Below, piece by piece: positions 1,847-44,091 of a stretch of DNA of 64,000 nucleotides (positions within the stretch are counted from its first letter, which is position 1; each line of letters starts with the position of its first letter). Origin of the DNA: a virus (lineage: Duplodnaviria > Caudoviricetes); the IMG/VR virus record IMGVR_UViG_3300017700_000931, positions 256,001-320,000 of that record; one strand, written 5' to 3'. The position numbers were made by a program, and so were the translations under genes. The notes beneath the pieces are model-generated. The model searched no databases, was not told the DNA's origin, and saw only the letters and a program-made list of their open reading frames with translations.

Positions 1847-2179
1847 TTATTTTTTACTTAAATCGTAAGGCACTGCATCCAAGCCATATTCACAGGTATA
1901 TCCAATGGCTTCCAATTTCTCCACTAAGGTAGCACAAGCCTCATAAGTCATCGTATCAGTTGAGTACTTGTCTAATACTGCTTTAACCTCGTCCGGCAAG
2001 TTGTCGTAATCCTCAAATAAATCGGTACTTTGGTTAAATAACTCCAACCATTGTTTGGTTGTATATAAACCATATTTATTTCTACATTCGTCAATACTTA
2101 GATTGAATCTAATTGACGCAATATTCAAATATTTTCTGTAGGTTGAAATTGCTGGTAATTTGTCCTCTATTTGGTTCAT
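1847..2179 (-). CDS. hypothetical protein
   Basis: 110-aa ORF with leader motif. Confidence 0.8.
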   Translation of the reverse strand: MNQIEDKLPAISTYRKYLNIASIRFNLSIDECRNKYGLYTTKQWLELFNQSTDLFEDYDNLPDEVKAVLDKYSTDTMTYEACATLVEKLEAIGYTCEYGLDAVPYDLSKK

Positions 2180-2222
2180 ACTGGTTACATTTATTAGTTT
2201 GATAAGGGGTTAACCCCCTTGC

Positions 2223-2435
2223 TTATAATCTCTCAATTATAAGCATTGACTTTTTGAATTCATGGTTACACCCATCACATGCCATACTGAAATAAATTTC
2301 ATTATCGTGACCCAATAATTTGTATGCTTTTTTTAAATCTGGGTCAGCCTCCTGAATTTGGTTTTTACTGGAATGTGCCAATGGTTCGTTGTCGGTTGTA
2401 CGCACCATGAAAGAATTGCATTTTGGACAGTTCAT
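2223..2435 (-). CDS. zinc-ribbon protein (start corrected to 2435)
   Basis: CPKC ... CDGC pairs. Confidence 0.7.
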   Translation of the reverse strand: MNCPKCNSFMVRTTDNEPLAHSSKNQIQEADPDLKKAYKLLGHDNEIYFSMACDGCNHEFKKSMLIIERL

Positions 2436-2482
2436 AAAGTTGTTTATTAGTTTGATATTTGTGGGGCAATTGCCCCACAAAT

Positions 2483-2767
2483 TTAATAAACACAAATTTC
2501 CTCCATCTTAATATCCTCATAGAAATCTGAATCCTCAGCCTCAATTAAAACGTGTGCTGACAATACAACGGTTGTGCTTAATTGAAGACTTTCAACTGTA
2601 ACAATTTTCACCGGACAAGAATAATGTTCTTTCAATGCCAAAACTAGTTTTGGCTCAACAATTTCTCTTAGGTTAATTTTTTTAGTATCGTTGACTTCAC
2701 CTAAGTCAATAACACCAACATTTTTTTGACCTTCAATCGCAATGTTTACAAAGATTCTTCTTTTCAT
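2483..2767 (-). CDS. hypothetical protein (start corrected to 2767)
   Basis: The track N-terminus MYYIC is the translated promoter; real ATG follows the leader. Confidence 0.8.
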   Translation of the reverse strand: MKRRIFVNIAIEGQKNVGVIDLGEVNDTKKINLREIVEPKLVLALKEHYSCPVKIVTVESLQLSTTVVLSAHVLIEAEDSDFYEDIKMEEICVY

Positions 2768-2840
2768 AATGGTTACGTTTATTAGTTTGACAATACAAAT
2801 ATAATACAATATTTGATATAAACCAAATTATTTGTAATTA
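2761..2840. repeat. 80-bp exact direct repeat, copy 1 (copy 2 at 8182-8261)
   Basis: Base-by-base identity over leader, promoter and first codons. Confidence 0.9.
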
Positions 2841-2870
2841 ATTTTGATAAAGGGGTTTCCCCCTTTGTGG

Positions 2871-3380
2871 TTATCTGTAATACTCCCTTACAGTATAATC
2901 AATGGTTTGCTTGAACGCATCCAATTCCTTTTGCATCTCGTTTAGCTTAGCCAGTTTTTTCAATTCAGCATCCAAATCAATGGTTTTATCCAAATCGTAC
3001 TCAGTGACTAGTTTATCGTAATCCTCGACGCTAATCAATAAGCCGTCTTTAATTTGACCAATTGCAATTCTTCGCTCAAAGTATTCTGTATATGCAGTGC
3101 TTGGACGAACGTCATAAGAACCACCGAATTTGCATATCTTGAAATTAATATACATACATCCATGAGCAAAGGTAATATACCCAACGGAACGCTCACCTTT
3201 TTCATCCTTTACAATAAGAGGTAATAACGAATCAGCACTTTTAACCAGTACGTTACTTGCTTTAACAATTTTTTTGCCTAGGAAAAATACTAAGGCGGGT
3301 AGAATTTGTTTTAGGGTTTCTTTAATTGCGGTATTCAATTCCTTGTTACCTTCAATCACAATGTTAATAGGTGTTTTCAT
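2871..3380 (-). CDS. hypothetical protein
   Basis: 169-aa ORF behind promoter 3415-3446. Confidence 0.85.
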   Translation of the reverse strand: MKTPINIVIEGNKELNTAIKETLKQILPALVFFLGKKIVKASNVLVKSADSLLPLIVKDEKGERSVGYITFAHGCMYINFKICKFGGSYDVRPSTAYTEYFERRIAIGQIKDGLLISVEDYDKLVTEYDLDKTIDLDAELKKLAKLNEMQKELDAFKQTIDYTVREYYR

Positions 3381-3469
3381 AATTTAGTGGTTTAGTTTAT
3401 TAGTTTGACTGGTACAAATATAATACTATATTTTTAATCTACCAAATAAAAAGTGAATTATTTTTAAAT

Positions 3470-3500
3470 AAAAAAACCCCATCCAGACCGGACAGGGTTT
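3470..3500 (-). terminator. intrinsic terminator
   Basis: AAACCC..GGGTTT stem followed by a U-run on the minus strand. Confidence 0.65.
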
Positions 3501-3537
3501 TCCTCGTGAAATTGTCGTCAAACTATAACCACGGAAA

Positions 3538-3732
3538 TTATTTTGTTTTGTTATGGTTGTCCATAACTTGTTTATACTCTTTCATCAGGTCGTCGTGCAT
3601 ACCCTCATTGAGCGGTTTTAACTTAGCAAAAAAGAATCCACAATTTGCCTCCGCAGGTGTTTTGCTACCAGACTTTATTGCTCTCATTCCGGCTCTAATT
3701 TTATCAATACTCATTTCCTCGGTTGTCTTCAT
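3538..3732 (-). CDS. hypothetical protein
   Basis: 64-aa ORF with variant promoter (TATATTTA). Confidence 0.75.
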   Translation of the reverse strand: MKTTEEMSIDKIRAGMRAIKSGSKTPAEANCGFFFAKLKPLNEGMHDDLMKEYKQVMDNHNKTK

Positions 3733-3780
3733 AGTGGTTTATTGGTTTGTTGATAAATATAAGACTATATAAATAAAGTT

Positions 3781-3813
3781 GGGTCCGTAACTGGGTAGGG
3801 TTGTTACGGACCC
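3781..3813 (-). terminator. hairpin / probable terminator
   Basis: GGGTCCGTAAC/GTTACGGACCC 11-bp stem downstream of 3836-3985. Confidence 0.7.
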
Positions 3814-3835
3814 TCTTTATTAGTCAAACTAAAAA

Positions 3836-3985
3836 CTACTTAAAGTATTTTGCGTAATATGGTCTACGTTTTTGTTTGTGCTTGTATTCCTTTACCAATT
3901 GTGGCAACACAATTCGTTTAGGTAATACGGCACTGAATTGAACAGGTGAAAATAATAACAAGAATGCGAAAATAATTGCTTTCAT
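3836..3985 (-). CDS. 49-aa protein with signal-peptide-like N-terminus and basic tail (not in ORF track)
   Basis: MKAIIFAFLLLFSPVQFSAVLPKR...KRRPYYAKYFK. Confidence 0.6.
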   Translation of the reverse strand: MKAIIFAFLLLFSPVQFSAVLPKRIVLPQLVKEYKHKQKRRPYYAKYFK

Positions 3986-4010
3986 AATAATTTGGTTTTT
4001 GTGGTTAATA

Positions 4011-5171
4011 TTAATTCATTGCAAGGTTGTAAGCCTTAGAAATCTTGGTGAGGTTTTCATTAATAATACGAATATCATTCTTAATATCATTAATGGTAAT
4101 ATCACCCGTACCTTTAAGCCCATCAAACATTTTGGTGGCTTCAATTAACATTCGGTTACCATGTCGTTTTGCGACCATTAAAGCGAATAAATCCATATCC
4201 ATCAAAAAATGTTCTGGGGTCTGGTTTGTCTCTTCCAGAAACAACTCAGTTAATTGGTTTGCCATATTGGTTAATTTAGTTTGACTGGATAAAGGTAAGA
4301 ACAACTTTTCAATATTCCAAATTATTCTTACCTTTTTTTATGCTTTTTTCAATTTCAGTCGTTGAATGTTATTTGTGTGCTTATCTTTGAAGCGTCTCCA
4401 ACCAAGACCAGACCAATAAGCATAACATTCAACAAAATCATCCTTTGCCTCATCTTTATAGGCTTGTGGGTCGAGTTCTTTTAACACCTCTCTGAATTCA
4501 TCAAACTCTGCTTTAGAAATTCCATCAGTATATTGAATTGGGTCTGTGTCAGTTGGGAGTGTCCCGAATGGGCATTCTTTGTCATCCTCAATGCTTTCAA
4601 CATTATCAGACAAATCATGGTCAAGTTGTGTTTGAAGTCCTTTTTTTGCTTTTGAAAGCGTTTCTTCTCTTGTCGCAGTTTCATCAACAATAACACGAGT
4701 TAAAAGAGTTACATGTACTAGTTTGGCTACTTTCATATTTGGTTACTTTTAGTTTGATAATGGTGGGGCGGTTAAGCCCCCACCAATTTACTCTTCTTCT
4801 TCAATAGCTTCTAACCCTGCATCCTCACCATGCACTCCAATAGCAAACCAAATTTGTTCCATTGTGGCTTCATTTTTTAAAGCGTTGTGTAGAACTTTTT
4901 GTGCCTCTTCATCAGTGCATTTGAATTTCGCTTTAACATCAGCAACACTCCAAAGGTTATCAGTATAGAATCCGGCTTTTCTCAATAGTTCTTTAGCCAA
5001 TTCAACATCACTTTTTACCACATCGAATTCAGTGTTTTTCACTTTAATCCAAATATCTTTTCTTGGGTGTTTAACACTCATCAAAGTGTCAGAAAATTCC
5101 AGTGGAAGCCCTTGTGGAAATACAACACCGAATTTTTTACTTACTTTTTGTTTTTTTAGAATAACTTTCAT
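4011..5171 (-). CDS. three hypothetical proteins (4011-4265, 4338-4736, 4788-5171)
   Basis: ORFs with leader motifs; starts corrected to the ATG after each leader. Confidence 0.8.
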
Positions 5172-5214
5172 AGTATGTGTTTTAGTTTGACGATACAAAT
5201 ATAATACTATATTT

Positions 5215-5694
5215 CTAATTAACCAAATTTTTTATAATCTTTTTTACACTTTTTTTTATTTGGGGAATTTGGTTACGTCGGAATCTAGGATTCCAGCCCG
5301 TTTCACATAAGGCAATAGATTCCATTGTCGACCAAGAAATATTGGTTATTGCAGTATATCCAGACCAACCACTGTTGGCTAAATCTTTATAGACTCCTTT
5401 AGAGTCCATATAGCAAGTGCCTAATTTAACGAAACAATGGGCTAAATACATACCCTCTGAATTGAATTCAGCTAATGTGGGTTTGTTGTTCGTTTCTAAT
5501 ATTTTATTGAATTTATCCTCAGTACAATTACGACCTAACCAAACAATTTCGGCTTTATATCCGGCTTTGCAAAGTTCCTTTGCTAGTAAATAAGCAACAA
5601 TACCACATCCACCTGCATTCAGGTTAAAATAATTTCCTTCAAGTTCATCAGGGAGTAGTACGTTAAGTTTGGTTAAGACTTTTTTGGTTACCAT
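5215..5694 (-). CDS. putative papain/transglutaminase-fold enzyme
   Basis: NAGGCGIVA ... AHCFV ... YMDSKG give a Cys-His-Asp order typical of this fold. Confidence 0.45.
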   Translation of the reverse strand: MVTKKVLTKLNVLLPDELEGNYFNLNAGGCGIVAYLLAKELCKAGYKAEIVWLGRNCTEDKFNKILETNNKPTLAEFNSEGMYLAHCFVKLGTCYMDSKGVYKDLANSGWSGYTAITNISWSTMESIALCETGWNPRFRRNQIPQIKKSVKKIIKNLVN

Positions 5695-5741
5695 ATTTGG
5701 TTAGGTTTTTGATAAATGGGGGTATTGCTACCCCCATTCTT

Positions 5742-6554
5742 TTATTTGAAACGTTTCAAAATGTCCTTAACGCTTTCGCTTTTCAGGGCAATGTACAACT
5801 CAATCAATTTGGTTGCTTCGTCGCTTTTGTCCTCACGTTTGTCAAGGGCTTCAACAACCTCTTTCAATTTTTGCATTGGGCTTTTTGCTGTCAAAGTAGC
5901 AACGTGTTTTGTTGTCGCTTTTTTCGGTGCTTTGCCAGTTTCAACTGCCGTTGCTTTTGCTGAATCAATTGCCTCGGTAACAATTTTCAATTGCTCATCA
6001 GCATTTTTTGTTTGCTTCACAATTTGAACAACTGTACCACCAGAAATCAAACCTTCAATTACGAAGTTTTTAATTTGTTTCCCAACGTTGGCAAGTGACA
6101 ACAAGTTGTAAATGTGTGGAACTGACTTCGCAATTTTTTGTGAAATCTCTTCTGGTTTGTAGTGCATTGCAACAAGGCGTTTAATTGCCTCAGCTTGCTC
6201 CACTTCATTCAGGGCTTTTTGCCCCGTACCAGTCACAATCATTGTGAAAATCTGGTCTTCCTCATTCCCTGTGTAAGGCGCAACCTCAACGTAAGGAATT
6301 GACTCACCTCTTTTCAAAAGAATCTGAATCGCTGCGAAACGTCTGTGACCGTCAACCAATTCGTAGGTATCTTCACCACGAGTTTTTTTAGCCTTCAATG
6401 GAACTTCCAGACCAATTGAGGCAATTGAATCTGCTAGGGCTTCCAAATCACCCATGTCAAGACGCACGTTGAATCCCTCACGTACCACAATGTTGCGTGG
6501 GTCAACAAGCATTGTATCTTTTCTTTTTGTAACTAATACTGCTCCTTTTTTCAT
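5742..6554 (-). CDS. parB: ParB/RepB/Spo0J family protein (ParB N-terminal domain + HTH)
   Basis: FNVR, LADSI..GL..PL, YELVDGHRR, LNEVEQAEAIKRL and the HTH EEISQKIAKSVPHIYNLLSL. Confidence 0.85.
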   Translation of the reverse strand: MKKGAVLVTKRKDTMLVDPRNIVVREGFNVRLDMGDLEALADSIASIGLEVPLKAKKTRGEDTYELVDGHRRFAAIQILLKRGESIPYVEVAPYTGNEEDQIFTMIVTGTGQKALNEVEQAEAIKRLVAMHYKPEEISQKIAKSVPHIYNLLSLANVGKQIKNFVIEGLISGGTVVQIVKQTKNADEQLKIVTEAIDSAKATAVETGKAPKKATTKHVATLTAKSPMQKLKEVVEALDKREDKSDEATKLIELYIALKSESVKDILKRFK

Positions 6555-6656
6555 AACTTTTTTGGTTTTTAATTAATAATGATGTGACAAATATAATAGG
6601 ATATTTTTAATTGACCAAATAATATTATAATTATTTTCGTCAAAGTTATTAACAAT

Positions 6657-8778
6657 TTAGAAATTCGTAGTGTTTTTGCCGGGTTCAGGAGCATTCTTTT
6701 TTATTACTAGGAACGCATTGCCGAAAATATTGCTAGTGAATCCAACAATAATATGTTCACCCTTTGGAGTGTCAACAACCAAATTTCCTTTTGGGTCAAT
6801 CGAAAGTTGTGAAAGTTCTTTGTTATGGTTCATAATAATATTATTTTGATAAAGGGCTTTAAAGCCCTTTGGTTAAGTGTGAATTACAAATCTGCTCTCT
6901 GACCCATAATACGAATATAATAACGGGTAAGTATTGCTAATCTCACTCAAATATCTCACTTCAATGTTAATGGTTGCACCATCCTTGCAAATTGCTTTAT
7001 ACTTGTTGTGCAAGTGTTCCAAGGCTAATTGAATTAAGTTTACATCGGTTTCCTTTAACACCGTATCAAATACAACTGGTTTCCCATCGGTTTTAACTTC
7101 AACACTTACTTTTAGAATATCGTTTTTCATAGTTGGTTACATTCATTGGTTTGATAAGGGGTATTAACCCCTATTATTATTATTTTACATTATATTCAAT
7201 AATTCTTAAACTTTTGAATGGCGCACCAGTAACCGACATACCACCACTCGAATTTGTTTTAAGAATTTCAAGGTGACAAGGAATAAAACCAGTTGACTTA
7301 CCTACAATAAATCTTCTCTTTTCTCCGTATTTGTCAACAACCTCAACTCTGTGACCTTCTTTACCAATTAATTCAGGTATTAACTGGGACTGACTTCTCC
7401 AACCAGTTTTATCATTTCTATCACTAGCAATTTTTACTAAATTAGTATAATTGGTGTATGCTTTTTTTGTACCTTTTTTCTTTGGAATTAAATCCTCCAT
7501 TCCAAGTTCTTTGGCTAAGGCAATGGTTCTATCCTGACATACATCAAAACCAAGGCAAGTGAATCCACTACCACAATTTAATACAAATAACTGTTGTTCT
7601 TTATTTATTGAATTTAACATATCTAATAGTTTTAGTTTGACAGGACAAATATAATACAATATTTGATATAAACCAAATTATTTGTATTCTTTTTTAAAAT
7701 AAGTTTTTAACTCAGCTAATGTGAATAACTTTTGGTATTGTGTACATTGTGTTCTATAACCCCCATCCACCGGAATGACGTTATCAGACTTTAACCATTT
7801 GTTGAATTCTTTCATAGGATAAAGGAGGTCTTTCGACCTCCCTTGTAACTTGGTAATGAATTTGTACATTCCATACCTAAGCCTTGTTTTTAATCTCAGT
7901 CCATTCACCGTTCCACTCTGTGCCGTTCAAATACCATGTACCTTGACGTTGGCTAATTCTTACGTTAGGTAGGCCGTTCAAACGCTCCTTAGTGGTGTTA
8001 CTTTTCCAACCTGCATTTGTAATGCTTAGTTTGGACTTTGTTAGACTGGTCAATTCTCTTTTTGCAATTACATTGCCATGCAATAAAAGTGTTGTAACTT
8101 TATCAGAAACTTCAACACTCATGTTCGCTTTTTTGAAAGGAGTCCCAGTCAAAAATGCCTCAATACTTTCTTCAGTAATTTTTTTCATAATGGTTACGTT
8201 TATTAGTTTGACAATACAAATATAATACAATATTTGATATAAACCAAATTATTTGTAATTATTTTTGATAAAGGGTTTTACCCCCTTACCATGCTTCCCC
8301 GTCACCAATAAATAATTTACCATTCTGGAAACTTGGCTCATATTCTTTATGGTCTGCAACCATATCACCAGTTTCATAGAATGTACTTAAATCAGCTAAT
8401 TCTAATTCGTGACAAACACAAACAACAAAGGTATCCCCACCATGTATAGGGTGTTCAACAAATTGAATTTTCTGACCTAATGAATTAACCATTTCACTGT
8501 AAACAGTTGGGTTCAATTCCATTAATTTTTTATAGTTTAACATGGTATAGAATTTAGTTTGACAATAGAATATTATTTTAACTACATTGACAAGTTCCAT
8601 AATCACAACAACAAGTACTACTATATACTTGACAAGTGTTACACCAATTCATTTCACCAGTGTGGCATAAGTGACATATTTTAGTATGGTCATGGCATGC
8701 CTCACATAAATCAGGGTTACCATCATGTGAATTATTAACAATTGTTAATTCAATATTACAGTCTTCGCAGTGATTCAT
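6657..8778 (-). CDS. run of small early hypothetical proteins (6657-6833, 6873-7130, 7180-7620, 7678-7869, 7877-8188, 8286-8543, 8578-8778)
   Basis: Starts corrected past promoter-derived MYYIC artefacts; 8578-8778 has 13 Cys and 6 His in 66 aa. Confidence 0.75.
8182..8261. repeat. 80-bp exact direct repeat, copy 2
   Basis: Identical to 2761-2840. Confidence 0.9.
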
Positions 8779-13985: not shown

Positions 13986-15011
13986 TATATGTTTGTTCAT
14001 TAAGTAATAGTTGCTTAATAGAATACCTTCTAAAAAAACCATCAAGAAATTCTTTAAAGGCATCCTTATCACTATATATTAAAATTTGATTACCACAAAG
14101 AATAACATTATTTCTATGACGTATTTCCCACCTAATACTCATTGATGTTATAGATAATATTTTCACCTTTAATTTTAAGTTATGTTTCTTACCTACCTTA
14201 ATAATCAATTTAACCATAGATTGAGAGCTTTTAAAGTTTTTCATCTATCAAAGCATGCGTTAACCAGAAAGCAATTGAGGTTGCTTTGGCTAGGTTATAA
14301 TCGTTATATCTCATGAAGGCATTTTCATCCCAAGGTTCCGGCTCTGGGCTATCACCAATGAATGCTGTATTCTGCTGTATTGGTTTTATCCTGATAGGAT
14401 TTGCACATTGAAAGTAATTCATCAAGTGATTTTGACATTGGTTTTCGATTATCTGCATCAAATGCATCATAACCCCATCTACCTCTCATGAAGTTCATAA
14501 TATCTGTTGGGGTTCTGAAGATATCATCAGCTTTCTCAGTTCTTATAGCCAAACGAACATCATAACCATTTCTCTGATATTTTTCACCATCCGGCAGATA
14601 TAGTTGTTCCATTAAAGCATTTTGTGGTACTTCTGATGGCACTACAAGAAAATATGGTTTGTCGTATGTATCTGGGTGAACCTTTGATGCAATTGGGGCC
14701 AACTGGGAGTTCAGTGCTTCTTCTAGTTTGGTTAAACTTTCTTTCACCAAATCATCTAGTTTACCATACCAATTTTTATTATGTGGATTACTACCATATT
14801 CAAATTTTTCTAAGTCAATCCAATATTGATAGACAAATGAATGTGTTGGTTCGGAACAACCTGTTCTTTCGGTGATATTAGCGAATGACCAAACACCATC
14901 AGAATTGGTATGAGGTTTTAACACTAGGATATTTTCGTTTTGCATTTTTGGTGCAACCGGATTTGAACCTCTTACAGCACTTACTTCAAAATAGATGTAT
15001 TTAATCTTCAT
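13972..15011 (-). CDS. three unrelated hypothetical ORFs interrupting the array (13972-14244, 14231-14470, 14352-15011)
   Basis: ORF track; start of 14231-14470 is uncertain because it overlaps the upstream gene. Confidence 0.65.
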
Positions 15012-31448: not shown

Positions 31449-31940
31449 TTATTCTTTATTTGATGCTCTGGTTGGAATGCCAATCATCATATCCCAGATT
31501 TTATATACGTCACCTTTAGTTAGTTCATCAGTTCCTTCCGATTGTGGTTTACCAAATATGAGATGATTAAGTTCTTTTTGTTCTGATTCAGATTTTGATT
31601 CCCACCAAATTAATGCTTCTTCCATTGGTTTAGTTTGATTATACCATTCAATACCTCTAACCAATGAAGCCCACGTTTTTTCAATTGAATGAAATGCTAA
31701 ATAATTACCAGTTAATGACCTATGTTCAGAATGTTCGAATTCATGCTTACCTAATTTAAATTTCAAGTCCCTGAATTTAACCCAAGCTATCATTAACCAC
31801 TGATAATTACTATGAAATTGTAAACTAAATGATGGTGATGGAACTCCTTTAGTTGGGTCATCGCACATTCCATTTACGTGTACTTTTAGGTCTATGAACT
31901 CAGCAATAATTGAATTACCATATTTAAATCTTTCTTCCAT
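31449..31940 (-). CDS. two-module hypothetical protein
   Basis: N..IAEF...FHSNYQWL phage motif plus a C-terminal WW-helix module shared with 26071 and 50270. Confidence 0.7.
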   Translation of the reverse strand: MEERFKYGNSIIAEFIDLKVHVNGMCDDPTKGVPSPSFSLQFHSNYQWLMIAWVKFRDLKFKLGKHEFEHSEHRSLTGNYLAFHSIEKTWASLVRGIEWYNQTKPMEEALIWWESKSESEQKELNHLIFGKPQSEGTDELTKGDVYKIWDMMIGIPTRASNKE

Positions 31941-31942
31941 AA

Positions 31943-32977
31943 TTATTTCGTTAGTGTATTAACCTCAATCTTCTTTGATATCCAATGGCCATGTGAATTA
32001 TTAATCAATTGTCTAAACTCTGGCCGGACAAACTTAGCTACTGACCTTCTAAAATCAATATAATTAAATTCATCTGCAATCCTCACAACATAACCCTCAT
32101 TAGTCTTCTCATGATTGCTGAATGCTTCTATAATACTATCCTTATCATAGATACCATCATAAATTACTGGTACCATTTCAAGACCAAGTATCTTAGAGTA
32201 TTCAACTGTTTCATCCCAAGATAAGCATCTATTATCCATCCACATCGAAAACATCATAAAGTACGATTTAAGATTATCATACTTTACTGTGTGAACAGCA
32301 TACAAGTTCTCACCACAAATACGCATATTATCATCGAGCATATACCCAATTTGAGACCATAAACCTTTCACCCAATTGCGTGTTTCATGTGAGGCAGTTT
32401 CTAATGACCTAGCATGGATGTAATCATTATACATGGTGGTATTTTCACCATCCATCTTAAGTGATACAATAACCCTCTTACCAATGAAATGGCTATCATC
32501 TTTTAATATCCGGTCATCCTTTAATAAATGACTCCAAGGTAGGTGATATGTTCTAGGATATTTAACATGTTTTTGGAATAGGTCTAAGACACCGCCTTGT
32601 TGGAGAATTCGTTGTACTGATTCATCGTAGAATAATTCGCCTTTGATTCGTAGTCCGGTTGGGGTTATGATGTTACCCCATTTATCGTATGTGTAATCTG
32701 AATAGAAATGCTCTGGTAATACAATATTTTCTATACCAATTTTATTTCTAATTTCATCACAAGTGAGTGTTGTTTGTTCAGCTTCGATATGGTGTTGTTC
32801 ACAAAGGGATGCACCGTTGTTTAGATAGTAACCACCATCATGAAATAATCTACGTTCTATGATATGGTGAGCGTCCTTGGCTGGATTACCACAAATGATA
32901 CATTTGAAACCATCTCGTTCAAATGTTCCATTTCTAAATTCATCTCGTGATATGAGTTTATTTTTTTCGATAATCAA
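31943..32977 (-). CDS. ATP-dependent RNA ligase (Rnl2-like nucleotidyltransferase) with an N-terminal HNH domain
   Basis: KYPRT.HLPWS, motif I KMDG, RICGENL, FMMFSMW, EGYVVR, VAKFVR; N-terminal CIICG..AKDAHHII...NGASLCEQHH. Confidence 0.85.
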   Translation of the reverse strand: MIIEKNKLISRDEFRNGTFERDGFKCIICGNPAKDAHHIIERRLFHDGGYYLNNGASLCEQHHIEAEQTTLTCDEIRNKIGIENIVLPEHFYSDYTYDKWGNIITPTGLRIKGELFYDESVQRILQQGGVLDLFQKHVKYPRTYHLPWSHLLKDDRILKDDSHFIGKRVIVSLKMDGENTTMYNDYIHARSLETASHETRNWVKGLWSQIGYMLDDNMRICGENLYAVHTVKYDNLKSYFMMFSMWMDNRCLSWDETVEYSKILGLEMVPVIYDGIYDKDSIIEAFSNHEKTNEGYVVRIADEFNYIDFRRSVAKFVRPEFRQLINNSHGHWISKKIEVNTLTK

Positions 32978-33335
32978 TTATTTCTTCACCTTTATCATGG
33001 TTACACTCATAACAAAGTGTTTGTAAATTATTCTTTCTATTCAATCCACCTTTAATTAATGGTATGATATGGTCAATAGTAAGTGGGTTATTTTTGGAAC
33101 CAACAGACAAACACTTTAAACAAGCATTTCCATCACGTTTAAAAATGTTTAGTCTAAGAGATTTTCTAACCCGATTTTTTTTTGGCCGGATACCATATTT
33201 GAAATTTGTGTTTATTGTGTTTGGTATTTCAATTAGTCGTTTTGGTTTTTTGACTAATGGGTAAGGTGTTTCATCAACATTACCACAATTATAGCAGACA
33301 TATCTGATAAATTCATGCCCACACGAACACAACAT
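32958..33335 (-). CDS. HNH endonuclease
   Basis: IFKRDGNACLKC...LTIDHIIPLIKGG.N..NNLQTLCYECN..K. Confidence 0.9.
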   Translation of the reverse strand: MLCSCGHEFIRYVCYNCGNVDETPYPLVKKPKRLIEIPNTINTNFKYGIRPKKNRVRKSLRLNIFKRDGNACLKCLSVGSKNNPLTIDHIIPLIKGGLNRKNNLQTLCYECNHDKGEEIIDYRKK

Positions 33336-33336
33336 A

Positions 33337-33567
33337 TTATTGTTCGTTACGAAGTTTACAGAATTTACAGTTACCCTTATGGGTTAAAAAATCGGCTTGA
33401 CTACTAATGTTAGTAACACGCCCAATATATTCACAACTATCTATTGTGTATGTATTGAGTGTTCTACCATCAATAACGATATCTGTTGTTTCAACACTAA
33501 CATTAGCATTGGGATAATCACATGATGTGATTACTAGCAATGAAATAAAGAGTATAATTGTTCTCAT
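33337..33567 (-). CDS. putative lipoprotein
   Basis: LLVITS-C lipobox. Confidence 0.7.
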   Translation of the reverse strand: MRTIILFISLLVITSCDYPNANVSVETTDIVIDGRTLNTYTIDSCEYIGRVTNISSQADFLTHKGNCKFCKLRNEQ

Positions 33568-33589
33568 ATTATAATATTATTTAAAAAAT

Positions 33590-33809
33590 GTTACTTATAA
33601 AACGTCGGATTCGTAAAAACTAAGTAACTTTTCTGTATGATGTTTTTAGCACCCAAGGTATCTTCAAGGAATAAATTCCTACATGAACACCAAACCTCCA
33701 CAGAAAATGTTTTCGTTCCAAGTACAGATGAAATGTTTATACCGCTACTCAAGTTATGTCGTTTCCGAGCTTTCTTTTTTGCAAGAGGAAGTAAGATACT
33801 GACCTCCCC
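33590..33809 (-). ncRNA. ~220-nt structured RNA candidate with a loop-to-distal pseudoknot
   Basis: 7-bp 5' hairpin whose loop GTATCTT matches distal AAGATAC; 8-bp, 7-bp and 8-bp further helices; a TCG-GAAA-CGA tetraloop. Confidence 0.5.
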
Positions 33810-33823
33810 ATTCACTGTTTAAC

Positions 33824-33953
33824 TGGTGTGCCACAAGGGAATCGAACCCCACACTTTCCCAGAACAACGCTCCGTCGAGCCTTTCATCAGGTTACCCCGT
33901 ATATTATTGTTTTAACATAGCTGTCCGGCCCACTAAAACTCAATATGCAGCAC
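33824..33953 (-). ncRNA. 130-nt tRNA-shaped RNA with encoded CCA and an enlarged anticodon domain
   Basis: GTGCTGC/GTGGCAC acceptor + ACCA, TTCGATT T-loop, CCGGA/TCTGG stem enclosing ~60 nt. Confidence 0.75.
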
Positions 33954-33960
33954 AAGTAAA

Positions 33961-34079
33961 AGATTGGTTCCCATTAAAAGTATCCATCAGCTCAACAAAG
34001 GGCCTCGTGTCCCAAAAAAGCAGATACTCCGTTCTTTATTTCTTTATTTTATTTGCTTGATTCGGTAAGGAACCAATCT
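33961..34079 (-). ncRNA. 119-nt structured RNA candidate
   Basis: AGATTGGTTCC/GGAACCAATCT 11-bp closing stem; internal AGTATC/GATACT helix. Confidence 0.5.
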
Positions 34080-34083
34080 TTTG

Positions 34084-34184
34084 TGGGCGCAGAGGGATTC
34101 GAACCCCCATCACTCTCATAGAAGTTGGACCAGTTGCAACTGGTTTTCCCCCTCAAGTCGACATCCCCTTAGTCGCACACGCCC
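34084..34184 (-). tRNA. atypical 101-nt tRNA-like gene (possible GCA anticodon in an extended, bulged arm)
   Basis: GGGCGTG/TGCGCCC-A acceptor, CGAC/GTCG D-arm, GGGGG-TTCGAAT-CCCTC T-arm; non-canonical middle. Confidence 0.65.
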
Positions 34185-34218
34185 AAATTAAAAAATAATG
34201 ACACCCATTTCTAAGTGG

Positions 34219-34661
34219 AATGATTAGCAAGGCATCAAACATCCAAGCACCCTATTTAGTTATCTCTATGGTAACGTTTTAATCATCTTACAATAAACAA
34301 CATCACCTTAGCGTGATTATAACGAATGGATTTGGGCCTTTAATGTCAGTCGCACGACGTGTTATATCCTCACCACTCCAATTCCGTACCCCCTAACTCA
34401 GATATACACCTGCTGACCATTACGTTTAACAGGGTCGCCAATTTCGGCTTAATTTTCATCTGAGGATTGGTTGCATCTATTGTTTGTTACTGCTTATCTT
34501 CAGTAGTCATTATTTTTATGAGTGAGTATGACGTATGCCGTCCTTTGGATTTACCCGCAGACCAACGGTTCTCTCACCCATGTTTTTATAAAAATAGAAT
34601 CACTTTCATAATCAGGACCATTTTTATTCGGTGTGCCTCACCAACATGATTACTAATCACT
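34219..34661 (-). ncRNA. ~440-nt large multi-helix RNA candidate
   Basis: End-to-end 10-bp + 6-bp pairing with G-U pairs on the minus strand; internal 9-, 7-, 6-, 6- and 5-bp helices; no long minus-strand ORF. Confidence 0.65.
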
Positions 34662-34697
34662 ATCTATTTTTCAATACTTCAAAGAACTATTCTATTG

Positions 34698-34787
34698 TGG
34701 CGATACTGTGAATCTAACACAGTTTTGCAAAAATTACAGAATCAGTATCTGTGTCATCTAGCCGTCCTAACATTAGACGATACCGCC
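34698..34787 (-). tRNA. atypical 90-nt tRNA-like gene (Glu/Gln-type body, CTG in the anticodon hairpin)
   Basis: GGCGGTA/TATCGCC-A acceptor, GTC-TAATGTTAG-GAC D-arm, 10-nt insertion, ACAGA-TACTGAT-TCTGT, CTGTG-TTAGATT-CACAG. Confidence 0.6.
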
Positions 34788-34792
34788 AATTA

Positions 34793-35754
34793 TTAATTAT
34801 ATTCTAGGATATTTTCAATTAAAACATCCCCAACTTCATTTTCAAAATCAATATTCTTTATGATGGTTTGATTCTCCAAAACCAATACATCATGTTCATT
34901 GAGGGCCATCACTCTTCGTGTTGGTTCACCGTCCTGATAAAGGTCAAACACCATTCCTCGTTTCATCACCAAGTTATTCATTACCTGTTATTCGCTTCCA
35001 TATAACTCCAATCAATAAGCAAATTGCTCCAATGATTAAAAGTTCTAGAAATGTTATATCACAAGGAAGTATCATAATATTTTAATCAATTACTACAACA
35101 CCAATGTTATTATCAATACAAAAATTTTGAATGGCTTCATCAAATAATGTTATATCGCCAAACATCCGGTAGACTCTAAGTGTGTTTGCACTTGGGGAAT
35201 ACTTACCATCAAAATGAACACAAGTTCCATTTACTTCAATTCGTTCTTGTCGGTAGGTTTTTCTATCGTCTTTCATTGGTTCATTTATTTTGACAAAGAT
35301 AAGTAGAAAATTTCAATCTACCAAATAAAAATCAAAATAATTTACAACAATAATAAAACTAATGCAGCAAAGCCGGATAATACATAGGCTGTAATACCAA
35401 CACTAATAACTCCATAACCAGTAAATCTGAGTTTTAATTCTTTAAAACCGCCATTATATAGGTCACTAATAACCCAATTAAATGTCCAGAAAAGTACTGG
35501 TATCATCCATGCAATCAAATATTCATCTTTCATTTTATGTTGTTTTAAATAACTACTTCACCATCTTCATCCAGTTCACACCACTCTTGAACACACTCAT
35601 CAAAAGTTTCTTCATCATCACAATCTGAATATGTAAAGATTCGACCATTCCAATAACATACCATCATTTCAGTTTCATTCCATTCAGGACATTTTACTAG
35701 ATATTTGGTATCTACTTTTAATTGATTTTCAGTATTAAATCTATGTTTGTACAT
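34793..35754 (-). CDS. small hypothetical proteins (34793-34981, 35082-35276, 35342-35533 membrane, 35545-35754)
   Basis: ORF track. Confidence 0.7.
35294..35325 (-). promoter_or_regulatory. promoter upstream of the ncRNA island
   Basis: TATCTTTG 35294-35301 and TTTG 35322-35325 on the minus strand, 20-nt spacer. Confidence 0.85.
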
Positions 35755-43905: not shown

Positions 43906-44091
43906 AATATGGAGGTAGCTGAAAATCCTAGATAAGAGTAGGCAAAACAAATAAATCACATTATGAAAACTTTTTTTAAAAATGTATTTACGATTGCAAC
44001 AGGAATTATTGTTGCACTTGTAATTATAGGTGGGATTGTTGTGGCTGTCCTTTATGCTACAAATCCTAATCTAATGAATTATTAGTAAATC

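Follow-up and report, generated by a model that had tools for sequence, protein, structure and literature searches.

An HNH nuclease domain joined to a predicted LigB/Rnl5-like RNA ligase domain in a tRNA-rich phage genome, and the family to which it belongs

INTRODUCTION

Proteins in which an HNH nuclease domain is fused to a ligase of the Rnl2 family have been noted in jumbo phages by Iyer et al. 2021 (PMC7824862) and, according to the citation given there, by Burroughs and Aravind 2016. The gene described here, at positions 31943-32977 on the minus strand of a 64,000-nt window of phage DNA, is another member of this group, the architecture of which is already known, though only from sequence. 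The window, meaning the whole stretch of DNA that was analysed, covers bases 256001-320000 of a virus genome of 362,532 bp, which is complete, has terminal repeats and contains about 32 % G+C (IMG/VR record IMGVR_UViG_3300017700_000931). Known members of PHROG 24030, namely CcrSC gp219, ME3 gp200 and HGTV-1 gene 233, have the same architecture from end to end. Relative to these, only the local setting of the gene is specific, as it lies downstream of a stand-alone HNH gene and an island of tRNA-like RNAs.

Among the described ligases, T4 Rnl2 and the kinetoplastid REL1 share the nucleotidyltransferase (NTase) fold and the Pfam family RNA_ligase (PF09414) with the fusion, but the fusion is without the Rnl2 C-terminal domain. 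The Rnl5 ligases, DraRnl (DR_B0094) of Deinococcus radiodurans and NgrRnl of Naegleria, have the same layout as the fusion, with an N-terminal module, an NTase domain and no C-terminal domain. However, the N-terminal module of Rnl5 is an OB fold, and the fusion has an HNH zinc-finger nuclease domain at this place. Nick sealing by DraRnl requires its N-terminal module (PMC1807946), and DraRnl contributes to radiation survival (PMC5397189). Passages in PMC5397189 and PMC4408790 state that Rnl2, Rnl5 and REL1 need RNA on the 3'-OH side of the nick. A further Deinococcus ligase, LigB, is encoded by DR_B0100 in a published operon with DR_B0099 (PARG) and DR_B0098 (HD-PNK). LigB forms a covalent AMP adduct with ATP, and joining of DNA or RNA by LigB alone has not been demonstrated (PMC1997131; PMC5397189).

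THE FUSION GENE AND ITS PRODUCT

The gene encodes 344 aa, with a TTG start at 32977 and a stop codon at 31943-31945 in the list of open reading frames (ORFs). No other canonical in-frame start precedes the conserved N-terminal helix, and a GGTGA is found 8 nt 5' of the TTG. Over aa 7-343, the product aligns with positions 2-341 of the 342 positions of the PHROG 24030 profile, annotated 'RNA ligase' (E 2.7e-126). In an AlphaFold model with a predicted local distance difference test (pLDDT) score of 95 and a predicted template modelling (pTM) score of 0.88, both domains are placed in one compact unit. The protein consists of a zinc-bound HNH domain, a connector and a ligase adenylyltransferase domain.

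The HNH (beta-beta-alpha-metal) zinc-finger nuclease domain is encoded by 32753-32950 on the minus strand (aa ~10-75). Its motifs occur in the order C26-x2-C29, H37-H38, N54 and C59-x2-H62-H63, with C26, C29, C59 and H62 assigned as zinc ligands and H37, H38, N54 and H63 as catalytic residues. An HNH motif set in the first ~65 aa had been recognized in the initial annotation, made from the letters of the DNA, and all of its residues are present, with PHROG, profile and structural support. No Pfam HNH model matched the fusion protein at E<=0.1. PHROG HNH families match aa 10-119 (E 7.5e-8 to 1e-3), and a close homologue, P0117, has a precomputed PF01844 match. A profile of the fusion family, compared with PDB sequences, found the HNH domain of IscB (E 4e-4) with the catalytic His in register, and aa 12-84 of the model superpose on the IscB HNH domain (9liq) with Z 6.5 and a root-mean-square deviation (rmsd) of 2.3 Å over 71 residues. 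Further superpositions were with McrA (Z 5.9), TagI (5.8) and the GVE2 HNH protein (5.3), and also with Cap5. These Z values are modest, but every match is an HNH domain and covers the whole of this small domain.

Conservation was assessed in 103 cluster representatives. The zinc ligands C26, C29 and C59 were present in 101, 102 and 101 of these, respectively, and position 62 is H in 57 and C in 42. For the catalytic residues, the counts were 98 (H37), 98 (H38), 102 (N54) and 95 (H63). Among the 83 full-length loci, 76 have both catalytic sets, 7 have the HNH set only and none is without the HNH set. The initial annotation had named an inactive and dispensable HNH domain as an outcome that would speak against its proposal. 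Degeneracy of the domain was not seen, with the predicted catalytic residues kept in ~90 % of the representatives and in 83/83 full-length loci. These alignments indicate that selection acts on the HNH domain itself, which is not an inactive leftover, and both it and the ligase domain are predicted to be catalytically competent.

The connector (32573-32752, minus strand; aa 76-135) is beta-rich in the AlphaFold model. Its conserved residues, P88, DKWGN (W100, G101) and G113, were identified in an alignment of 38 diverse homologues. It is missing in homologues that consist of the NTase only, the N-termini of which align at about aa 135-138, and therefore belongs with the HNH module.

THE LIGASE DOMAIN AND ITS RELATIVES

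The adenylyltransferase (ligase) domain is encoded by 31946-32572 on the minus strand (aa 136-344) and is without a C-terminal or OB domain. It matches PF09414 at aa 168-317 with 99.8 bits (cut-off 27). Following a KYPRTxHLPWS segment (139-149) are motif I (K174-M-D-G177), R190, motif III (E223), motif IV (E294-G-Y-V-V-R299) and motif V (K315-x-x-R318), with the codon for the motif I lysine, K174, at 32456-32458. K174, D176, G177, R190, E223, E294, G295 and K315 are invariant across the 38 diverse homologues. The initial annotation had listed all of the nucleotidyltransferase motifs, including the lysine in KMDG. This is borne out for motifs I, III, IV and V, which were mapped singly.

The closest structural matches of the NTase domain were T4 Rnl2 (2hvq, Z 15.6; 1s68, Z 15.4), NgrRnl (Z 15.1; rmsd 3.1 Å over 177 residues) and TbREL1 (Z 14.1). 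However, when the fusion-family profile was compared with PDB sequences, it reached NgrRnl (E 8e-4), and T4 Rnl2 was not listed at E<=1, despite its structural Z of 15.6. The fusion ends ~26 aa past motif V, and the model after aa 318 comprises one helix and short strands. As no domain follows motif V, the Rnl2 C-terminal domain is missing, and the alignment of the model to 2hvq spans only the NTase domain of Rnl2. The ligase half is placed in a LigB/Rnl5-like branch of PF09414 and, as it has no such domain, appears not to be Rnl2 proper. The description 'Rnl2-like' in the initial annotation is therefore appropriate to the Pfam family and the fold, but not to the domain composition or to the closest studied relative, which is LigB.

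This relative is a 210-aa 'RNA ligase family protein' encoded by D. radiodurans plasmid pMP1, which is 42.6 % identical to aa 138-344 of the fusion (E 4e-43) and also matches PF09414. Its gene is followed by one for a TIGR02452 protein and then by one for an HD + AAA_33 kinase. This matches LigB (DR_B0100), the first gene of the three-gene operon, an assignment made from the operon structure. As a tblastn search of pMP1 at E<=1e-3 gave a single match site, the LigB-like gene, DraRnl, which is encoded by the same plasmid, is much more distant from the fusion. LigB is an NTase alone (210 aa), without HNH domain or connector, whereas the fusion carries both. The operon of LigB includes PARG and HD-kinase genes, and no PARG, HD or kinase gene was found in the window around the fusion; however, LigB and some relatives of the fusion share an HD + AAA_33 kinase neighbour.

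In a quick NTase-domain tree that is poorly resolved (52/90 forks open), the fused and unfused forms did not make two clean clades, and we note that some of the rows recorded as NTase-only may be truncated metagenomic genes.

Three homologues, P0121, P0123 and P0139 (530-713 aa), contain inteins located exactly in ligase motif I. The layout is KMDGE, then an intein that begins CLS and ends VHN, then C-TTMY. The inteins in P0121 and P0123 include LAGLIDADG-type homing-endonuclease blocks. Inteins at this position may be taken as a further sign of a functional active site and of the attraction of mobile elements to this gene family.

DISTRIBUTION OF THE FAMILY

Full-length homologues sharing 45-54 % identity with the fusion were found in Salicola phage SCTP-2, Ralstonia phage RsoM2USA, the Caulobacter CcrSC group and Acinetobacter phage ME3. 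The homologue in Halovirus HGTV-1 is 30 % identical, and the HGTV-1 record already notes an 'HNH endonuclease domain'. A search of a large protein database with the fusion gave 6,619 matches, and an exhaustive search gave about 2,100 clusters at 50 % identity, with full-length fusions mixed with NTase-only forms of ~210 aa. In species-representative genomes, which were searched for related loci using a 9-sequence alignment, there were 466 confirmed stretches. Isolate chromosomes with a member of the family include those of Leptospira, Imbroritus, Paucibacter, Devosia, Variovorax, Sphingomonas, Pararhizobium and Achromobacter, and copies in megaplasmids were found in Variovorax, Bosea, Pseudomonas (including pMPPla107), Rhizobium, Erythrobacter and Miltoncostaea. 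The HNH-ligase family is thus very large, and extends over jumbo phages, an archaeal virus, megaplasmids and chromosomes. The fusion is both ancient and widespread.

GENOMIC CONTEXT OF RELATED LOCI

To survey neighbours, all flanking ORFs of 110 related loci were clustered. Only one family of neighbours recurs, in 25 loci, and its members join an AAA_33 kinase to an HD phosphohydrolase or, in L030-L032, take the form of a T4-type Pnkp (kinase + HAD). Of the 20 NTase-only loci, 16 have the kinase neighbour beside them, compared with about 10 of about 96 fused loci that have it nearby. The HNH fusion and an adjacent HD-kinase are, therefore, largely alternatives to each other. Where they do occur together they can be very close. 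In L080, the kinase gene adjoins the fusion with stop and start overlapping, and in a Pseudomonas FeN3W plasmid, the kinase gene overlaps the start of the fusion.

A different RNA-repair neighbour is seen in L050 and L058 (both Armatimonadales-binned), where the gene order is tRNA array, RtcB, HNH-ligase, with RtcB directly 5' of the fusion. In L058, a single array region (1918-7029) includes three RNA ligases, namely a PF09414 ligase with an OB fold (PHA02142), RtcB and the HNH-ligase. Translation-related neighbours were an MnmA-like tRNA thiolase (L015), peptidyl-tRNA hydrolases and thrS (Miltoncostaea) and an aminoacyl-tRNA hydrolase (Bosea). Some plasmid loci have DNA-repair neighbours, namely UmuD, a Y-family polymerase, RecX, uracil-DNA glycosylase and DprA, and in several chromosomes the fusion gene is solitary amid housekeeping genes.

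A tRNA or tmRNA gene lies within 6 kb of the fusion in 20/89 fusion loci, in all 20 on the same strand as the ligase, and 12 of these have at least three RNA genes. None was found within 6 kb in the 20 NTase-only loci. In the clearest cases, the fusion gene is embedded in a tRNA array, with 31 tRNAs on one side and 2 on the other in Paucibacter soli (L063), 17 and 8 in Variovorax JS1663 (L073), and 15 and 8 followed by a stand-alone HNH gene in Variovorax RA8 plasmid 3 (L117). In the several genomes in which the gene is array-embedded, the nearest tRNA is 8-155 nt away. However, we note that the array cases are not independent, as the two Variovorax elements and the Paucibacter element are related, and that single adjacent tRNAs may mark only integration sites. 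Nonetheless, chance does not account for genes that lie inside arrays of 25-33 tRNAs in chromosomes and megaplasmids, and the link to RNA genes is real for a minority of family members.

A few other neighbours were recorded. A Band 7/SPFH gene is present less than ~2 kb upstream of the fusion in L043 (Leptospira) and L008 (HGTV-1), two cases from very distant genomes that may be coincidence. In the Erythrobacter plasmid locus L123, a NUDIX hydrolase gene is directly upstream of the ligase and a DUF4326 gene is downstream, and the PARG-like TIGR02452 protein is encoded near the ligase in the Deinococcus pMP1 locus (L116). The ADP-ribose-related genes among these give a hint that some members deal with ADP-ribosylated nucleic-acid ends (PMC11833690).

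THE PHAGE LOCUS

Upstream of the fusion, and overlapping the ligase start by 20 nt, is a stand-alone HNH endonuclease gene (32958-33335, minus strand). The overlap and the HNH identity had both been proposed in the initial annotation and were confirmed. The 125-aa product has an N-terminal CxC...CxxC zinc ribbon and matches PF01844 (E 6.9e-12) and HNH_5 (E 4.2e-11). This gene was not found beside the fusion in 30 related phage loci, not even where the ligases are 82 % identical, and none of 16 window neighbour genes lies beside the fusion in those loci. A separate HNH ORF is present in just 11/110 related loci. A paralogous relationship between the two HNH domains was ruled out (33 % identity over 72 aa, E 1e-3), as was a role of the 125-aa HNH protein as a conserved partner across the family, although it recurs in the array-embedded subset.

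The 125-aa protein resembles small free-standing phage HNH proteins, and the best comparison was with a 178-aa HNH protein encoded by the delta plasmid of Nostoc PCC 7120 (E 1e-11 over 92 aa), the gene for which is directly 5' of a trn operon of 24 tRNAs. By position, this gene is all8564, which has been described as a co-regulated homing endonuclease conserved beside long tRNA arrays (Santamaria-Gomez et al., PMC8421152), with T4 SegB cited as a precedent for a nuclease driving the inheritance of a tRNA region. The Nostoc type consists of arrays of decoding tRNAs, whereas here the 125-aa HNH gene adjoins tRNA-shaped RNAs, and the HNH-ligase fusion was not found at the Nostoc array. Stand-alone HNH genes of related type follow the fusion-containing arrays in L063, L073, L068 and L117. 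On these comparisons, the 125-aa protein would be a separate, array-linked mobile endonuclease of the homing type and not a subunit of the ligase.

At the junction of the two genes (32958-32985, minus strand) there is a run of seven A residues (CGAAAAAAATAA), and loss of one A would join the two frames. However, a frameshift product is not proposed, because the homologues begin at the same point without an upstream HNH.

Upstream of the HNH gene is a gene-poor stretch (33590-34787, minus strand) with three tRNA-shaped RNAs at 34698-34787, 34084-34184 and 33824-33953, all on the same strand as the fusion, which lies ~0.6 kb downstream of them. Each has acceptor and T arms and an oversized central arm, and, from folding and direct reading of the sequence, all three fold with closed acceptor stems. 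The island includes an ORF-free gap (33823-34466) and a canonical T arm (34092-34108). ARAGORN made no call in the island at its default threshold with intron mode on or off, and at a relaxed threshold the calls were inconsistent and dubious. Rfam, searched at E<=1 over 33300-35100, found a T-arm-like fragment only, and a sensitive blastn comparison of the island with the 110 related loci found no similarity.

The RNA island and the 125-aa HNH gene flank a 76-aa ORF (33337-33567, minus strand) with a lipoprotein-signal-like N-terminus (MRTIILFISLLVITSC), weak homologues of which are found in L010, L011 and L014, 3-6 kb downstream of the ligase. On the other side, a 163-aa ORF (31449-31940, minus strand) begins 2 nt past the ligase stop. 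It has no Pfam or PHROG match, nothing informative was found for it in Atlas, and it has no homologue in the 30 related loci. Promoter and terminator scans around the fusion locus did not exceed shuffled expectation. Elsewhere in the window, at 43909-43944 on the plus strand, is an Rfam DUF805b RNA motif (41.7 bits; gathering threshold 35.6).

tRNA AND END-HEALING GENES ELSEWHERE IN THE PHAGE GENOME

The phage has 57 tRNA genes, of which 55 are between 9 and 70 kb. Among these tRNA genes is one for a second PF09414 ligase of 350 aa (genome 42908-43960, minus strand). A 306-aa protein, also encoded among the tRNA genes (genome 52227-53147, minus strand), combines an AAA_33 polynucleotide-kinase domain with a 2H part, in which there are two HxT motifs and which weakly matches the 2H cyclic phosphodiesterase domain of fungal tRNA ligase. 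The end-healing domains of this protein resemble those of fungal/plant tRNA ligase. The kinase-2H protein and the 350-aa ligase are a candidate heal-and-seal pair, predicted to be separate from the HNH-ligase. The kinase-2H gene is 235 kb from the fusion, and the only AAA_33 kinase matches in the genome are at 52.7 kb and 29.3 kb, both beyond the window. RtcB, RlaP and KptA/Tpt1 were not found in this phage.

ARAGORN also reported unusually long genes (80-98 nt) for normally short tRNAs, of the Thr, Cys, Met, Asn, Ile, Gln, Trp and Lys types, in the phage genome and in L012, L015, L017, L063 and L073. Examples are a Thr tRNA of 88 nt (14755-14842) and a Cys tRNA of 87 nt (33330-33416) in the phage genome, and a Thr tRNA of 98 nt in L063 (1358-1455). 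The long tRNAs may carry extra arms or inserts.

DISCUSSION

The reading we favour, tentatively and with a probability of roughly 45 %, is that the fusion is a LigB/Rnl5-like ligase that seals RNA breaks, with the HNH module handling, and probably trimming, the substrate. K174 would be adenylylated by ATP, and the enzyme would seal 3'-OH/5'-PO4 breaks, most likely in tRNA or other structured RNA damaged when phage and host are in conflict. Taking the place of an OB or C-terminal domain, the HNH module would hold the nucleic acid for the ligase domain and, its catalytic residues being intact, would probably also trim or open the damaged ends of this substrate, so that 3'-OH/5'-P termini fit for ligation result ('trim and seal'). 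Because joining by LigB has not been demonstrated and DraRnl needs its N-terminal module, a bare NTase is likely to need an accessory nucleic-acid module, and it is a natural inference, by analogy, that the HNH domain and connector supply this module in the fusion. The partial complementarity between the fusion and healing enzymes is the best hint that the HNH domain helps to make ligatable ends.

A number of points weigh against this reading. The best argument against obligatory coupling is the independent decay of either half. In 11/103 representatives, there is an HNH catalytic substitution or a flagged local misalignment, and most of these retain the ligase residues. The ligase-dead loci belong to one Saprospiraceae/Lewinellaceae lineage (L087, L089-L092, L094), with L111 in addition. 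Changes in this lineage are K174Q and alterations of E223, E294 and K315, with the HNH and zinc residues retained, and 5/7 of the ligase-dead loci adjoin an HD-kinase gene, ~0.7 kb downstream of the fusion. The lineage has the appearance of a natural 'pseudo-ligase' with a live nuclease. As HNH or ligase residues are lost separately in some members, either half can be selected by itself, and neither activity has a strict need of its partner. For tRNA, 'trim and seal' in its simple form is also mechanistically awkward, because a cut anticodon loop that is trimmed at both ends would leave a shorter tRNA. DNA could be the substrate instead; radiation induces the LigB operon of Deinococcus, for which a part in the repair of DNA and/or RNA has been discussed (PMC5397189; PMC11833690). 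In addition, ~78 % of the fusion loci are without a nearby tRNA, and the phage cases alone are no enrichment, because about a quarter of a tRNA-rich jumbo genome, by our estimate, is within 6 kb of a tRNA. Finally, no experimental study of the fusion was found in the literature, and the only mention found is the sequence-based one in PMC7824862.

That the two activities are independent, with the HNH domain acting as a DNase against host or competing-phage DNA or as a homing nuclease through which the gene and neighbouring tRNA arrays spread, and the ligase separately repairing RNA, we consider rather unlikely, though it is the published view that the HNH attacks foreign DNA and the ligase repairs RNA (PMC7824862, section 3.4.9). 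The decay of either activity alone in some members fits it, as does the attraction of mobile elements to the family, seen in the motif I inteins and in the stand-alone HNH ORFs at 11/110 loci. However, the order of the fusion and its compact unit are kept from phages to a haloarchaeal virus (at 30 % identity) and to chromosomes, where the gene can be flanked by housekeeping genes, which would be unusual for a selfish nuclease. The finding that joining by the NTase-only LigB alone has not been demonstrated (PMC1997131) also suggests that the ligase needs an N-terminal module. For the homing variant, it can be said that tRNA arrays travel with HNH homing endonucleases, with T4 SegB as the precedent (PMC8421152), but the arrays that carry the fusion also hold a separate stand-alone HNH gene of the array-linked type, and the homing role therefore seems to be already filled. 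We judge it unlikely that the enzyme is directed at DNA, with the HNH domain nicking or processing DNA or RNA-DNA hybrids and the ligase sealing DNA in break repair or at replication-linked nicks. The best-known HNH domains do work on DNA, and DNA-repair genes are neighbours at some plasmid loci. The radiation-induced LigB-PARG-PNK operon is also the home of the nearest studied relative (PMC5397189; PMC11833690), and the contribution of DraRnl to radiation survival points the same way (PMC5397189). Set against this are the recurrent, specific company of the family, comprising tRNA arrays, RtcB, an MnmA-like thiolase, peptidyl-tRNA hydrolase and threonyl-tRNA synthetase, and the need of Rnl2, Rnl5 and REL1 for RNA at the 3'-OH side, as described in the passages cited above.

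The initial annotation had proposed a cut-and-join enzyme, and a programmed version of this, in which the HNH domain cuts a specific RNA and the ligase rejoins it without healing, as in protein-only RNA splicing or editing, seems improbable to us. As substrates, the tRNA-shaped RNAs next to the gene, with their oversized central arms, or the transcripts of tRNA arrays would be candidates. HNH (beta-beta-alpha-metal) nucleases generate 5'-P/3'-OH ends, so that the chemistry assumed in the annotation agrees with what is established, and these ends match the requirement of the ligase. The position of the gene, ~0.6 kb 3' of three tRNA-shaped RNAs on the same strand, and the embedding of the fusion in tRNA arrays in several genomes, 8-155 nt from the nearest tRNA, also favour it, as does the fact that a healing enzyme is rarely adjacent to fused forms and is usually adjacent to NTase-only forms. 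However, the proposal that no healing would be needed is not supported, as the phage encodes the kinase-2H protein and a second ligase, and relatives adjoin HD-kinase, Pnkp or RtcB genes. The statement that no Pnkp-like gene is visible is correct for the window but not for the whole phage, given the kinase-2H gene. That some fused forms are paired with an HD-kinase, a Pnkp or RtcB implies that their substrates have 'dirty' ends. The suggested survey of neighbours for non-coding RNA clusters brought out the link at the 20/89 fusion loci described above, but at ~78 % no tRNA is within 6 kb, and many chromosomal copies are solitary. The annotation had also held that a widespread fusion with no link to RNA clusters would count against it; the fusion is widespread, yet a link to tRNA clusters exists in a minority, and by its own criteria the proposal is therefore not refuted. 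Further difficulties are that the RNA island has no counterpart in the 110 related loci, that the intron mode of ARAGORN at the default threshold found no intron-bearing tRNA in it, and that a ligase-dead lineage persists. To our knowledge, and short of an exhaustive search, no HNH nuclease is known as a site-specific RNA-processing enzyme. The most specific form of the idea, a single-polypeptide enzyme dedicated to cutting and rejoining tRNA arrays or tRNA-shaped RNAs with no healing enzyme, is very unlikely. In it, the HNH domain would excise or open the oversized central arm or a damaged anticodon loop, and the ligase would reseal the 3'-OH/5'-P ends. If true, such an enzyme would be a bacterial and phage equivalent of enzymatic tRNA splicing, assembled from parts that are unrelated.

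Viewed alone, the window is a case of ordinary annotation. The family, however, is well suited to experiment. LigB has long been puzzling, in that it self-adenylylates and ligation has never been seen, and because the fusion supplies within one protein the module that LigB lacks, it is a good candidate for showing what the LigB branch joins. Substrates and controls are on hand, in the form of array-embedded genes in cultivable Variovorax and Paucibacter, the alternation with the kinase, and natural lineages in which the ligase or the HNH domain is predicted to be dead. Study of this family may thus explain what ligases of the LigB type join.

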